Shown here: positions 14,603-24,927 of the stretch, piece after piece
Numbering within the stretch: position 1 is the stretch's first letter
Layout of the letters: each line of letters opens with the position of its first letter
Source: Actinomycetes bacterium
GTDB lineage: Bacteria; Actinomycetota; Actinomycetes; JAWWOW01
DNA length: 64,000 nt
Assembly: GCA_045807285.1 (NCBI GenBank)
Contig: JBJMHR010000013.1
Location: 358,770-422,769, forward strand
Direction of reading: 5' to 3'
Notes under the pieces: model-generated
What the model was told of the DNA's origin: nothing
Seen by the model: the letters and a program-made list of their open reading frames with translations, nothing else
The model's database searches: none
Position numbers and translations under genes: made by a program

Positions 14603-15643
14603 CTAGCCACCCATGACGAGCGCGACCTTGCCCCCGACTGCTTCGTCGGCCACCTGATAGGCACTCGCCGCGTCATCGAGGGCGTATTGGTGCGTCACCG
14701 TCACCTCGGGGTGCAGATCCCACTGCACCAGGTTCGCGGCCAGCTCCTCCATCCGTCCGATGCTCGTCACCCACGAGCCGAAGACCGTGAGCTGAGAATG
14801 GATCAGTGCAGGGCTGACGTCGATCTCCATTCGCCCGCCCTCCCCCACGAGCACGCATCGCCCCCAGCGGCGCGTTGCCGCAAGTGCGGTTGACCGCGCC
14901 GCCCCCGAACCGGAGGCGTCAAGGCTCACGCTGCAACCGTGACCGCCCGTCAGCTCGCGGATGACGTCGACGGCATCCGCAGTTGCGATGACGCCGTGGT
15001 CGATCGCCCCGACATCTTTCGCAAGGGTCAGTCGGTCGGCCACGACATCCACGCCGATCCGCGGCCCGGCACCCATTCGCCCACCGAGCAGCCCCGCAGC
15101 AAGACCGACCGGACCCATGCCGGTGATGAGCAGGCTGTCGCGACCGGAGACGTCTGCCTTGCAGAGCGCTTCGTACGCCGTACCGAATCCGCACGCCACG
15201 CAGGCGCCGTCGATGAACGTCAATGAGTCGGGCAACGGGACGCAGGTTGACTCTTCGGCCAGCAGGTAGTCCGCGTGGCCACCGTCGCGCTGCCAGCCAT
15301 ACGCCGCACGCAACGGTGACGTGCAGCTGATCATGTATCCCGAGCGACAATCGGGACAGACTCCGCAGCCGGCAATGTGGTAAAGGATCACGCGATCACC
15401 GACAGCGAAACGGCGACAACCAGGGCCTACCTCGACAATGACACCGCAGGGCTCATGACCGGCAATGACATTGCGGTACGCCTCCGCTCCGCTGCCGAGA
15501 TGCTCTCGGTAGATGGCGCGAATATCGCTTCCGCAGATCGTCGATGCCTTCATCTGTACGACGACTTGCCCGTGGCCTGGCTGCGGGTCCGGTACCTCGC
15601 GGTAGGCCACCTCACGGTTCCCGGGCAGATAAACACCGCGCAT
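14603..15643 (-). CDS. Zinc-dependent alcohol/polyol dehydrogenase (MDR family)
   Basis: GHEPCG, second structural Zn site CGVCPDC, Rossmann GMGPVGLAA; start ATG abuts galK stop (TGAATG). Confidence 0.9.
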
Positions 15644-16807
15644 TCAGAGATCCAATCGTTTCGCGCCATCGGACGTATGTGCGACGAACAATGTGGGTTC
15701 GGCGAACTCGGCGCGACGAAATGCCGCGCGCACTCCGTCGGACACGTCGTCGATGTCTGCGGTCGCGACGAGCGCGACGGCGCAGCCGCCGAAGCCACCA
15801 CCGGTCATCCGAGCTCCGTACGCGCCGCATTCGAGCGCGGTACTGACGGCGAGGTCGAGCTCGGGTATGGAGACCTCGAAGTCGTCGCGCAACGAGGCAT
15901 GCGATGCGCTCAGCAGGGGCCCAACACCGATGGTGTCGTCGTTGCTCAAGGCCTCGGCGGCTTGCAGCACCCGTGCGTTCTCAGTCACGACGTGCCGAAC
16001 ACGTCGCGCCAAAACAGGCTCGAGCCCGTCCGCTTGGTCAGCGGTGGCGTCGCGCAAGGCCGTGACACCGAGCTGAGCAGCCGCACGTTCGCACTCGCTG
16101 CGTCGGGTCGCGTAGCCACCGCCGGCGTTGGTGTGCTTGACGTTGGTATCGACAACGAGCAGTGCCACGTCGGCCGCGCTGAGATCGAACGGCAGCTGCC
16201 GGCTCGTGAGTGATCTGCAGTCCAGGAACAACGCGTGTCCGGCGCGGCCCAGCAACGCGATCGTCTGATCCATCACCCCAACAGGAGCTCCGACGATCGA
16301 CTGCTCAGCGCTTTGCGCGACTAACGCAAGTTCCTTCGGGTCCAGCCGGGCATCGGCCAGCTCACACAAGGCCAGACCGACGGCACACTCGAGCGCAGCA
16401 CTCGATGACAACCCACCGCCGACGGGCACATCGGAGTCAATGGCGACGTCGAATCCGCCGACGTCAACACCCCGCTCGCGCAGCGCCCACGCCACACCCG
16501 CCGCGTAGCCGAGCCAGTCGTGGGGCGGGCTGTCTGCCAACTCGTCGAGCACGACGGACTTGGCCGACCCACATTGCTCGGACCAGCCACGAACAACGCC
16601 GTCCCGCCGTCGCGCGACCGCAGCCATCGTCGACCTGTCGATCGCTACGGGCAGCACAAAGCCGCCGTTGTAGTCCGTGTGGTCGCCGATCAGGTTGACC
16701 CGGCCGGGCGCGCGCCAGACGCCCTCGGGGTCGCTGCCGAACGCAGTCCGAAAGCGCTGTGCAACCCGACCCGGGCGTGCGCTGTCAGCTGCCGACGACG
16801 TGCCCAT
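15644..16807 (-). CDS. galK: Galactokinase (GHMP kinase)
   Basis: APGRVNLIGDHTDYNGGFVLP and PVGGGLSSSAA GHMP motifs; start approximate (ORF track 16894). Confidence 0.9.
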   Translation of the reverse strand: MGTSSAADSARPGRVAQRFRTAFGSDPEGVWRAPGRVNLIGDHTDYNGGFVLPVAIDRSTMAAVARRRDGVVRGWSEQCGSAKSVVLDELADSPPHDWLGYAAGVAWALRERGVDVGGFDVAIDSDVPVGGGLSSSAALECAVGLALCELADARLDPKELALVAQSAEQSIVGAPVGVMDQTIALLGRAGHALFLDCRSLTSRQLPFDLSAADVALLVVDTNVKHTNAGGGYATRRSECERAAAQLGVTALRDATADQADGLEPVLARRVRHVVTENARVLQAAEALSNDDTIGVGPLLSASHASLRDDFEVSIPELDLAVSTALECGAYGARMTGGGFGGCAVALVATADIDDVSDGVRAAFRRAEFAEPTLFVAHTSDGAKRLDL

Positions 16808-22574: not shown

Positions 22575-23686
22575 GCGGTCACCTGCTCGCTGTCGGTCTG
22601 CTTCTCTGCCAGCGCCGTTTCGAGGATCTGCACCATCGACCCGGCGATCGTGTCCCACTCATAACGCTTCTGCAGCGGCGCGACTTGTTCGTCGCGGCGG
22701 CCGCAGGAGTGCTGCACGACGTGCTCGCACGCAGCGGCAAACGCGCGGCCGTCGTCAGCGAGATGTACGACGTCGCCCCAGTCCAGCACGACGTCCGGCA
22801 CCCGGGTCGAGACGACGGGGAGCCCCGCAGCGAGGTACTCCAACGTCTTGGTCGGACTGATCGAGCGCGTCGCGTCGTTGAGGGCGAACGGCATCAGCGC
22901 GACGTCGAACTCCGCCATCACCTGCGGAAGCCGCTCGTAGGCCTGCATGCCGAAGTAGCGGATGTTCGCCGCCTGCGGCGACGTTGCCGGGTCGATCTTT
23001 GCGGTCGGACCGACCATGTGGATTTCCCAGTCCGGCAGAGCCGCTGCGAGATCCGCGATGAGCTCGAGGTCGAGTCGTTCGTCGATGACGCCGACGTAGC
23101 CGGCGACCTTGACGTCGTGTTGACGGCGAAAAGACCTGGACGTGGCGTAGTGGGAGCACTCGACGCCCGATGGGAACAGATGCGTCGGTTGAGCGCCCCG
23201 TGCAGCCGCGGCGCTTCGATGCAACGAGCGGCCACCTGCGAACGCAACGTCGGCGATCGTCAGGGCGCGTCGCATCCGCAATGTCATCTCTGGCGGCGCG
23301 TCTGCGAAGCTCGCGAGGTCGTCCATGACGTCGTACACGAGCAGTCGTGGTGCGAGTGCTTCAGCGATATGCACCGCTGTCGGCGCATAAAGCCAGACGT
23401 CGCGCTCCCGGCCGCCCAGCAGGTCCTCGAGCAGCGGCTGGTAGAGCTCCGTCGACGTCGCTCCGAACTCCCGGACGTCGCCAGGAGTGTCGATCCAGAC
23501 CCGGGTGATGCCGTCAACTTCCTGAATCTGGGCTTTGGCTTCTGACACGTCGCATGGTCGAGGTTCCTCGACGAACCAGGTACGCCGGCCCGCACCGACG
23601 CGGCTGATCAGATGTTGCGGCCGCTGCCACACCCAGTCCCAGCGCAGGTGCGACAGAACGACGAGATCGCCATCGTGGAGCCTCAT
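22571..23686 (-). CDS. Glycosyltransferase family 1 (GT-B fold) protein
   Basis: 371 aa, N-terminal [14 protein letters not shown] motif recurrent in GT1-like proteins linked to glf; ATGA overlap with glf stop. Confidence 0.7.
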
Positions 23687-24927
23687 GCGGCCGCACCTTT
23701 CGCGCAGTTGGTGTTGCCCGCCTGAGCGCGTTGTCCCCGCCGTCCCTGCAACGGCGCCCCCTGCGTCAGGTGCGGAGCAAGGGAGTTGTCGTACATCGAC
23801 AGCGCCGACGCGATGGCCATGTGCATGTCGAGGTACTGGTAGGTACCGAGCCGGCCCCCGAACAGGACGTCGGGTTCCGCCTCAGCCAGCGACCGGTACC
23901 GCTCAAGCCGGGTCCGGTCGGCTGCGGTGCCGATCGGGTAGTACGGCTCATCCGCAGATGTCGCGGCACGTGAGTACTCCCGCACGATCACGGTCTGGTC
24001 GTCGGGGTAGTAGTCACGCTCGGGGTGGAAGTGCCGGAACTCATGAATGCGGGTCCATGGCACATCGGTGTCCGCGTAGTTCATGACCGGCGTGCCCTGG
24101 AAGTCGCCGGTCGAGAGAACCTCGGGCTCGAAGTCGAGCGTGCGCCAGCTGAGCGGGCCTTCGCAGTAGTCGAAGTACCGGTCCAGCGGGCCGGTGTACA
24201 CAATCGGCGTTCCTTCGGGGATGTGCCGGCGTACGTCGAAGAAGTCGATTCCGGTCCACACATCGATGTTCCGGTGGCTGGCCATGCGCGTCAGCCACGC
24301 GGTGTAGCCGTCCGTCGGCAGGCCTTCGTAGGTGTCGTTGAAGTACCGGTTGTCGAATGTGTACCGAACCGGCAGCCGCGTGATGATGTCCGGGCTCAGC
24401 TCGCGCGGATCGGTCTGCCACTGCTTTTCCGTGTAACCCCGCACGAAAGCGTCGTACAACGGGCGACCGATCAGTGAGATCGCCTTTTCCTCGAGGTTGT
24501 TGGCCCGGTCCGCGTCGATCTCACTCGACTGCTCACGGACGAGCGCGCGGGCCTCGGCCGGTGTCAGGTAGCGCCCGAAGTACTCGCAGATCGTGCCGAG
24601 GTTGATCGGCATCGGGTAGACCCGGTCCTTGAAGATCGTGAAGACCCGATGCTGGTACGGCGTGAACGTCGTGAACTCGTTGACGTAGTCCCACACGCGT
24701 TTGTTGGACGTGTGGAACAGGTGCGCGCCGTAACGGTGAACCTCGATACCGGTCTGCGGATCGGGCTCGGAATACGCGTTGCCCCCGAGATGGCTGCGGC
24801 GTTCGAGAACGAGGACCCGGCGGTCGAGCTGACTCGCGACACGTTCAGCGATGGTGAGGCCAAAAAAACCGGATCCCACGACGACGACGTCGTAGGACCC
24901 AACATTTCTGCCGGTACCGTCCTCCAT
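23683..24927 (-). CDS. glf: UDP-galactopyranose mutase
   Basis: FAD motif VVVGSGFFG and conserved UGM core ([12 protein letters not shown]...); GGGAGGG upstream of ATG 24927. Confidence 0.9.

Follow-up and report, generated by a model that had tools for sequence, protein, structure and literature searches.

The 64,000-nucleotide stretch analysed here, referred to as the window, belongs to contig JBJMHR010000013.1 of the Actinomycetes assembly GCA_045807285.1, which represents an uncultured actinobacterium from soil. On its minus strand it carries eight contiguous genes for UDP-galactopyranose mutase (UGM; gene glf), a glycosyltransferase (GT), a small propeller protein designated X, an aldo-keto reductase (AKR), a glycoside hydrolase of family 2 (GH2), galactose-1-phosphate uridylyltransferase (GalT), galactokinase (GalK) and a Zn-dependent alcohol dehydrogenase (ADH). 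Comparison of these genes with related loci favours, at somewhat better than even chances, a self-contained cytoplasmic module for glycosides of galactofuranose (Galf), which would build, mobilise and recycle an intracellular metabolite. On the best reading, it serves neither to build cell-wall galactan nor simply to catabolise galactose. That UDP-Galf formation, two glycosidase-like proteins and Leloir enzymes are joined in one operon had been pointed out in the initial annotation of this DNA; the combination is indeed unusual, and it was found to be conserved. The genes are as follows, with protein lengths in amino acids (aa).

glf, 23683..24927, minus strand: UDP-galactopyranose mutase, 414 aa, ATG at 24927; opens the operon
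GT, 22571..23686, minus strand: soluble GT-B (GT4-like, TuaH-like) glycosyltransferase, 371 aa; candidate UDP-Galf-dependent transferase
X, 21621..22574, minus strand: five-bladed beta-propeller, 317 aa, GTG at 22574; small family of the GH43 clan
AKR, 20584..21624, minus strand: aldo-keto reductase, 346 aa, GTG at 21624; AKR11-like
GH2, 17786..20587, minus strand: glycoside hydrolase family 2, 933 aa, GTG at 20587
galT, 16785..17789, minus strand: galactose-1-phosphate uridylyltransferase, 334 aa
galK, 15644..16807, minus strand: galactokinase, 387 aa from ATG at 16807; alternative ATG at 16816
ADH, 14603..15643, minus strand: Zn-dependent medium-chain dehydrogenase of the polyol/threonine-dehydrogenase type, 346 aa; closes the operon

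All eight open reading frames (ORFs) of the initial annotation were present, and their family assignments, by hidden Markov model (HMM) scans and in the case of X by a structure model, are those it had guessed. The genes are intact and run from 24927 to 14603 with zero intergenic space, the spacing at the seven consecutive junctions being zero or negative. As read from the sequence, ATGA overlaps join glf to GT and GH2 to galT, GTGA overlaps join GT to X, X to AKR and AKR to GH2, and galK and ADH abut as TGAATG. The overlap of galT and galK is 23 nt from the ATG at 16807 or 32 nt from the ATG at 16816. The earlier list of ATGA, GTGA and TGAATG junctions is therefore right, except that its six 4-nt overlaps are five, as many as the list itself contains. 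The start chosen for X agrees with the NCBI call of 317 aa for the same metagenome-assembled genome (MAG; hypothetical protein ACJ735_08245), and that of GH2, at 933 aa, with the 903-935 aa of 13 orthologues. G+C content is 65-70% across the whole window. A sigma-70 promoter scan gave no site and terminator-like matches were no commoner than in shuffled sequences, so that the operon is deduced from gene spacing only. Judged by this spacing, the eight genes form a single translationally coupled operon.

A search with X returned 614 relatives, nearly all of them from metagenomes or MAGs. Loci were scanned at one genome per GTDB species, which gave 54 loci, and all loci, 26 of them actinobacterial, were searched by tblastn with the eight window proteins and two extra UGM types. 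In a JGI contig (L001), the X of which is 66% identical, the eight genes recur in identical order and with the same overlaps between unrelated flanks. UGM, GT, AKR, ADH, GH2, galT and galK were all found within 10 kb of X in 10 of the 26 actinobacterial loci, labelled Mycobacteriales, Frankiaceae, Micromonosporaceae, Acidimicrobiales and Solirubrobacteraceae. The order is shuffled across loci, with GT-UGM, X-AKR, ADH-GH2-galT and galK as recurring blocks. Gene order, which the initial annotation had proposed to compare among relatives, is thus kept in L001, and gene content is kept in ten actinobacterial loci. As the content recurs despite rearrangement, the grouping is not accidental.

Two loci (L002 and L006) carry four-gene clusters consisting of UGM-GT-X-AKR only. 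Outside Actinomycetota, X is accompanied by a GT of 35-41% identity and by glf in Alphaproteobacteria, a Woesebacteria MAG, a gammaproteobacterial MAG and Gemmatimonadales; in the scanned loci outside the phylum, X was never found with GH2, galT or ADH. Homologues of X with 41-51% identity were also seen in Patescibacteria (candidate phyla radiation, CPR) MAGs (L004, L026, L030, L040, L042, L044, L045, L047, L048, L052 and L054), which have reduced genomes; these X genes are mostly without nearby GT, UGM or Leloir partners. An M24-like gene of about 360 aa, with a creatinase/prolidase fold as judged by eye, is inserted in four clusters (L019:16972-18042, L032:13191-14177, L039:14739-15773 and L053:16764-17777) and is absent from the window. 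A GH1-like TIM-barrel protein is an accessory of some clusters and is fused to an RmlD-like domain beside GT-glf in Phyllobacterium and Gemmatimonadales.

The distribution of AKR bears on the proposal, also made initially, that Leloir enzymes are combined here with an oxidoreductive galactose route. AKR directly follows X in the window and in L001, L002, L006-L009, L011, L013, L029, L032, L039 and L053, and in the four-gene clusters it stays with X, GT and UGM where galK, galT and ADH are absent. The combined route thus received no specific support. A related explanation, in which two unrelated units are packed together, one for Leloir and oxidoreductive catabolism through AKR and polyol dehydrogenase and the other a separate glf-GT pair, draws on the resemblance of these two enzymes to the fungal oxidoreductive galactose route. 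It is very improbable indeed, since the eight-gene content is kept in ten further loci despite rearrangement, fusion proteins bridge both halves (X-GalK and GT-UGM, described below), and of the enzymes that would follow in the oxidoreductive route, hexulose kinase among them, none is present. The conserved neighbourhood together with the fusions largely refutes a juxtaposition of two operons by chance.

The window Glf scored above the cut-off of TIGR00031 (336.3 bits against 303.75) and matched PF03275 (1.8e-79). The N-terminal FAD-binding GxGxxG motif is present as VVVGSGFFG, and the closest solved relative is the M. tuberculosis UGM 1v0j (E 2.5e-186), which makes the protein one of the mycobacterial type. 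Across the related loci, the UGM position is filled by three types of protein: the classical mycobacterial-type Glf, a divergent Glf of 31-32% identity that serves the four-gene clusters, and a eukaryote-type flavoprotein of about 470 aa. The last adjoins GT at L018:8541-9953 and also occurs in L014, L015, L019, L025, L029, L031, L032, L039 and L053. Classical glf was undetected by tblastn in ten actinobacterial MAG loci that have the eukaryote-type enzyme. Its best PDB matches are the UGMs of T. cruzi (4dsg, 1.6e-118) and A. fumigatus (about 1e-102), and its occurrence in bacterial clusters suggests either that the gene was transferred between domains or that the eukaryotic enzyme arose anciently in bacteria. 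That three different proteins occupy one position argues that it is the function that is conserved. UDP-Galf appears to be the hub of the module.

X gave no Pfam or NCBIfam match at default thresholds. Its AlphaFold2 model is a five-bladed beta-propeller with a predicted local distance difference test score (pLDDT) of 94.5. Against PF04616 (GH43) the protein scored 18 bits, below the gathering score of 32.2 and hence outside Pfam sequence membership; weak GH43 matches (E<=1) were obtained with 24 of 35 members of the X family, the best at 4.4e-10. The PF04616 alignment of X is shifted by one blade, and the catalytic residues were placed by blade topology instead. On this basis, D22 (in KDP), D133 (in YDPHP) and E200 (in WGLEG) occupy the innermost strand of their blades (I, III and IV), and in the model their layout is that of the GH43 base, pKa modulator and acid, so that in structural terms X has the arrangement expected of GH43. 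The triad residues, together with H263, E196, W197, Q229, R230, E260, Q278 and R280, are shared by practically all of the 72 diverse representatives compared, and K21 is a further invariant basic residue. Triad spacing and the histidine that follows (H263) also recall the GH43 xylosidase SXA, a resemblance that serves as a lead and not as a test. An exhaustive profile search found 299 clusters of the family (at 50% identity) among 1.84 billion. By these sequence features, X is a small, discrete family of the GH43 clan with intact active-site residues, new within a known clan, and is predicted to be an inverting cytoplasmic furanosidase or galactosidase.

Several proteins were found in which X is fused to enzymes of sugar activation (L058:5516-9046, plus strand; L057:729-4286, plus strand; L059; proteins P0165, P0169 and P0180). 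A fusion of 1176 aa, 58% identical over its full length between Gemmatimonadales and Elusimicrobiota, consists of a galactokinase-like GHMP kinase, a middle domain with a sub-threshold aldose-1-epimerase match (E 2.3e-4) and X. P0169 (1691 aa) has the order UDPGP-GalK-Aldose_epim-X, and P0180 (1480 aa) likewise has an N-terminal UDP-sugar pyrophosphorylase domain. Separate mutarotase genes lie inside three actinobacterial clusters, and a GalE gene adjoins a fourth (L009). The fusions look like a line from sugar release to sugar activation in one polypeptide. In the simplest reading of these architectures, X would free galactose, which would then be anomerised, phosphorylated and uridylylated, with the GalT of the window taking the place of the pyrophosphorylase.

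The best PDB profile match of X is to one blade of a GH130 enzyme, 1,2-beta-oligomannan phosphorylase (E 1.1e-4). This match raises the question of whether X works as a phosphorylase in the manner of GH130, or else as a transglycosylase dependent on a nucleotide sugar or a sugar-1-phosphate, in the way of the Leishmania mannogen enzymes and the mannoside synthase Uhgb_MS, and so builds or phosphorolyses a Galf or galactose oligomer while GalK supplies or consumes galactose-1-phosphate. The invariant K21, R230, R280 and H263 could bind phosphate, and fusions to a kinase and a pyrophosphorylase would suit a sugar-1-phosphate enzyme too. However, X retains all three GH43-type carboxylates, including the Asp of blade I. 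GH130 phosphorylases lack this base, phosphate being the nucleophile. A mutarotase-like domain in the middle of the fusions would have no use unless a free reducing sugar is formed, and the weak Pfam matches already mentioned go to GH43. Phosphorylase or transglycosylase activity is thus distinctly unlikely; because the general base is retained, X is more likely to be a hydrolase than a phosphorylase.

GT matched the Pfam family Glyco_trans_1_4 and belongs to the GT-B fold, with GT4-like character. Its structure model most resembles sucrose-phosphate synthase (SPS); a PDB sequence search with GT gave no match, and the homologues retrieved with it bear generic names only. The label GT1 given initially is correct if read as Pfam "group 1", which corresponds to GT4-like GT-B in CAZy, and incorrect as the CAZy family GT1. 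Against the NCBIfam model for TuaH (NF047676), GT scored 76.4 bits, with only its C-terminal half covered; identity as TuaH was rejected, this score being far under the cut-off of 550. Orthology to the cell-wall transferases GlfT1 and GlfT2, which the initial annotation had named as a finding that would count against its proposal, was examined at the sequence level and rejected as well: GT has a GT-B fold, whereas the GlfT enzymes are GT2 proteins of the GT-A fold (DxD, Glycos_transf_2). In two genomes of Phyllobacterium, GT and a GLF/UGM domain are fused in proteins of 776-777 aa (L033:3199-5529 and L027:5570-7903, both on the minus strand), each followed by a 688-aa protein with a GH1-like and an RmlD-like part. 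The first of these loci is from a cultured isolate, Phyllobacterium sp. 1468. Backed by the GT-UGM fusions, GT is a candidate for a new GT-B family of Galf-transferases.

An envelope role, in which glf and GT build a galactan or teichuronic-acid-like surface polymer and the hydrolases remodel it, was also considered. The window Glf very closely resembles the UGMs of mycobacterial and corynebacterial cell walls, TuaH of teichuronic acid synthesis is the named model that GT matches best, and relatives of GT are labelled "glycosyltransferase involved in cell wall biosynthesis" in databases. In addition, M. tuberculosis has an endogenous galactofuranosidase for wall remodelling (PMC12290620). Nevertheless, the 76 bits of GT stand against a TuaH cut-off of 550, and its GT-B fold sets it apart from the GT2 enzymes GlfT1 and GlfT2. 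Membrane segments and signal peptides are absent from the eight proteins: no 19-residue window reaches a Kyte-Doolittle value of 1.6, and no N-terminus is signal-like. An initiating phosphotransferase, flippase, ABC exporter or ligase was not conserved in any locus. Acidimicrobiales, Solirubrobacterales and Micromonosporaceae, which are among the taxa with the cluster, are moreover not known to have arabinogalactan. An envelope role is therefore quite improbable.

For each of the eight proteins, the prediction is thus a soluble, cytoplasmic one. In the cluster flanks examined, those of the window included, genes for transporters, flippases or polyprenyl-phosphate enzymes were not conserved. 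Because the proteins are predicted to be soluble and no export or lipid-carrier gene is conserved, a glycan of the cell envelope is probably not the substrate of the module. Of the two roles first proposed, the better fitting was that of turning over or salvaging a glycan that contains Galf, in view of the X-mutarotase-GalK-pyrophosphorylase and GT-UGM fusions.

A wider context for GT was seen in a low-GC MAG contig labelled Gammaproteobacteria (L043:439-15596), in which two tandem X paralogues are followed by GT, glf and a GH1-like gene. This block is preceded by two S6PP-like phosphatases, an SPS-like GT4, a GT2 and two more GT4 genes. The locus looks like a larger soluble-oligosaccharide pathway, and its context suggests soluble glycoside chemistry with a small soluble acceptor.

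The GH2 protein matched PF02836, PF22666, PF02837 and PF00703, all above their gathering thresholds, and was far under the cut-offs of all NCBIfam equivalogs. H332, N400-E401 and E488 are invariant in 14 GH2 orthologues. In a PDB profile search, similar values were obtained for LacZ1 (6ld0, 3e-40), BtGUS (7xyr, 3e-38) and Galf-ase-2, a galactofuranosidase (9j6n, 2e-37); E. coli LacZ followed at 2.6e-21. A LacZ-type enzyme, the other finding named beforehand as adverse to the initial proposal, was rejected by sequence: GH2 is far under the cut-offs of the LacZ models (64.9 against 1221 for NF007074 and 73 against 1284 for NF007666), and E. coli LacZ is distant. No Bgal_small_N domain was found in GH2 by Pfam scan. 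The C-terminal 337 aa (residues ~597-933; window 17786-18799) have no Pfam match. This C-terminal third is conserved among the 14 orthologues, with the motifs TAWGSSVFHFTTDSG, PRRNVLVAE and CQYRL. GH2 is a candidate for a distinct subfamily, and we infer Galf specificity for both GH2 and X.

GalT scored 175.8 bits with TIGR00209 (cut-off 102.1), matched PF01087 and PF02744 and has the active-site motif DHPHGQ; the enterobacterial model NF008724 was not reached (216 against 448). GalK scored 327.9 bits with TIGR00131 (cut-off 226.65) and matched the galactose-binding signature PF10509 as well as PF00288 and PF08544. By curated HMM thresholds, GalK, GalT and UGM are bona fide enzymes of their kinds. 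AKR matched PF00248 with 221 bits (threshold 24; 2.1e-65) and reached no equivalog threshold; its closest solved relatives are the AKR11 proteins GSP69 of B. subtilis (1pz1, 4.7e-59) and IolS (1pyf, 2.9e-50). ADH matched PF08240 and PF00107, and CGSD...GHE and CGVCPDC motifs are present in its translation. Its best NCBIfam models, threonine 3-dehydrogenase and scyllo-inosose 3-dehydrogenase, were far under their cut-offs, and its PDB relatives are threonine, sorbitol and xylitol dehydrogenases (E 1e-33 to 1e-28). ADH, GH2 and galT are contiguous in eight related loci.

With two hydrolases, GalK and GalT making up half of the operon, a catabolic function has to be weighed. Imported galactofuranosides or galactosides, for example from fungal, lichen or actinobacterial glycans, would be degraded, with X and GH2 freeing galactose for the Leloir enzymes, UGM working toward the pyranose, GT running in reverse like sucrose synthase (glycoside and UDP giving UDP-Galf), and AKR and ADH disposing of the aglycone. 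The UGM equilibrium favours the pyranose form, and GT-B enzymes of the sucrose synthase type, which the GT model resembles along with SPS, are reversible. The mutarotase genes and fusions suggest that a sugar is released and then phosphorylated, and the GalE gene beside cluster L009 would fit as well. Yet no transporter or binding protein is conserved beside any cluster, and in the absence of GalE from the operon UDP-galactose has no catabolic exit there. UGM-GT-X-AKR clusters exist without GalK, GalT and GH2, and the GT-UGM fusions, as well as the adjacency of these genes across phyla, look biosynthetic. A purely catabolic operon is thus rather unlikely.

In the favoured reading of a cytoplasmic Galf-glycoside module, GalK would phosphorylate free galactose, GalT would move galactose-1-phosphate onto UDP to give UDP-galactopyranose, and Glf would contract the ring to give UDP-Galf. 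The TuaH-like GT would then attach Galf to an acceptor that is soluble; a sugar, sugar-phosphate or polyol is the most likely one. X and GH2 would hydrolyse the glycoside or its derivatives, and the freed galactose would return to GalK. AKR, which goes with X, and ADH, which goes with GH2-galT, would most likely act by carbonyl/alcohol interconversion, either in forming or removing the aglycone or in processing the sugar set free.

A number of observations weigh against this scheme. GH2 is about equidistant from glucuronidases, LacZ1-type galactosidases and a galactofuranosidase. A retaining GT4-like enzyme acting on UDP-alpha-D-Galf would produce alpha-Galf, whereas the known galactofuranosidases of GH2, GH43 and GH159 cleave beta-Galf. 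Co-transcription of the genes for synthesis and hydrolysis gives a futile-looking cycle unless there is post-translational regulation, and recycling is not obligatory in the four-gene clusters L002 and L006, which are without galK, galT and GH2. No specific evidence explains the role of either AKR or ADH. In most patescibacterial loci X stands alone, and the full cluster was not encountered in any cultured organism, all its occurrences being in uncultured lineages. Finally, while family membership, gene coupling, conservation, fusions and a predicted location in the cytoplasm are established, we infer the donor, the acceptor, the linkage and anomeric configuration, the hydrolase specificities and the physiological purpose.

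The region upstream of the operon was examined for regulatory signals. The 163-bp region between glf and a divergent aldehyde dehydrogenase gene (25087-26541) contains one operator-like element.

palindrome GGATCTGACAAACTGTCAGATCC, 25029..25051, no strand assigned: perfect 10+3+10 repeat

The palindrome, reported in the initial annotation, is real and perfect; it consists of GGATCTGACA-AAC-TGTCAGATCC and occurs once in the window, with 0 matches expected from shuffled sequences. It was not found in any of 60 related loci, and nothing similar was seen in the upstream region of L001; therefore, it is not a conserved operator of the cluster. Binding by a neighbouring IclR regulator at the divergent promoter had been suggested. 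The position of the IclR gene (13684-14577, plus strand) does not bear this out, as it is convergent with ADH and 10 kb from the palindrome. Divergent from the operon, on the plus strand, the segment 25087-27557 encodes the aldehyde dehydrogenase (PF00171, 4.8e-157) and a short-chain dehydrogenase/reductase (SDR) of the NAD-dependent epimerase/dehydratase family, neither of which was conserved beside the cluster in related loci. A 527-aa ORF at 27554-29137 (plus strand) is an Ada-type regulator fused to AlkA (Ada Zn-binding, AraC-type helix-turn-helix, AlkA_N and HhH-GPD). A transfer-messenger RNA gene lies at 37963-38325 on the minus strand (Rfam RF00023, 145 bits), with the tag peptide ADNNALAIAA as predicted by ARAGORN.

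Among known systems, the mycobacterial galactan locus glf-glfT2 (Rv3809c-Rv3808c) with GlfH1 is similar in that an M. tuberculosis-type UGM is directly followed by a coupled glycosyltransferase gene and in that endogenous Galf hydrolysis is part of the biology. The window operon differs in its soluble GT-B transferase, in the lack of lipid-carrier and export functions and in having Leloir and redox genes in the same operon; in contrast to GlfH1 (GH5_13), its hydrolases are a GH2 protein and a GH43-clan propeller, both predicted to be cytoplasmic. With the Leloir gal operon (galE-galT-galK-galM) it shares GalK and GalT that pass equivalog thresholds, and mutarotase genes or domains in relatives. 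There is no GalE here, however, and UDP-galactose apparently goes to UGM and GT and is not epimerised for glycolysis; in some fusions, UDP-sugar pyrophosphorylase replaces GalT.

The known galactofuranosidases comprise Streptomyces ORF1110 (GH2), members of GH43 subfamilies 3, 8, 30-32, 34 and 37, GH159 and GH5_13. The window GH2 is near the galactofuranosidase 9j6n (2e-37), and X has the GH43/GH159 fold with its catalytic triad. Activity of this kind, as beta-D-galactofuranosidase, is known in GH43 subfamilies, GH159 and GH2 (PMC12290620). The structural neighbours named for ORF1110 are BtGUS and BACCELL_01794 (PMC11627007), and the window GH2 is close to 7xyr (BtGUS) and 7sf2. ORF1110 has a signal sequence, activity in culture supernatants and a CBM42 domain (PMC11627007), whereas GH2 lacks a signal peptide, and its C-terminal region of about 330 aa is a different, unassigned one. 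Unlike the GH43 galactofuranosidases, X is under the GH43 Pfam threshold and forms its own small family, with a specificity that is putative.

Cytoplasmic cycles such as those of sucrose (SPS, sucrose-phosphate phosphatase (SPP) and invertase), glucosylglycerate (GpgS, GpgP and GgH) and Leishmania mannogen (GH130-like MTPs) are likewise cases in which the genes for a soluble synthase and a soluble hydrolase of one intracellular glycoside are kept together. SPS, of the sucrose cycle, is the closest match of the GT model, and the X propeller is of the same superfold as the mannogen enzymes. Differences are that the sugar would be galactofuranose, that the actinobacterial operon has no phosphatase and that it has its own branch for nucleotide-sugar regeneration and two oxidoreductases. 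We know of no intracellular Galf glycoside cycle in bacteria. In the literature searched, no description was found of the cluster, of a GT-B Galf-transferase or of such a cycle, and the uncultured origin of the full clusters may explain this.

Galf-transferases are also found in the families GT31 (GfsA) and GT40 (LPG1), neither of them TuaH-like GT-B enzymes. The characterised GT2 (GlfT1/2, PamC) and GT111 (WbbM-N, PamA) Galf-transferases include no TuaH-like GT-B enzyme either (PMC12269835). With the characterised enzymes, GT shares the presumed UDP-Galf donor and a gene adjacent or fused to that of UGM. If it is a Galf-transferase, it would add a family to those characterised.

Every catalytic family in the operon except X is known. 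What is new is the conserved wiring of UGM, a GT-B transferase, two cytoplasmic glycosidases, Leloir re-activation and two oxidoreductases in one operon, along with the replacement of one UGM type by another, the eukaryote-type enzyme included. Eukaryote-type UGMs replacing the classical enzyme in bacterial operons are an evolutionary clue. Galactofuranose is absent from mammals; its enzymes are thus drug and diagnostic targets, and few Galf-transferases and galactofuranosidases have been characterised. The cluster yields a candidate GT-B Galf-transferase family, a compact propeller glycosidase family and a distinct GH2 subfamily, each with its genetic context.

The cluster also points to a possible, so far unrecognised, soluble Galf metabolite in widespread uncultured soil Actinomycetota. 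We propose only tentatively that many of these bacteria make an intracellular galactofuranoside, for example a Galf-polyol or Galf-sugar serving as compatible solute or reserve, by way of a new GT-B family, X and a new GH2 subfamily, with recycling through GalK, GalT and UGM. If true, it would be a first for bacteria: a cytoplasmic cycle built on a Galf metabolite, conceptually akin to those of mannogen, sucrose and glucosylglycerate. Even if the operon were a salvage route only, it would still represent a new wiring of Leloir enzymes to UDP-Galf supply.

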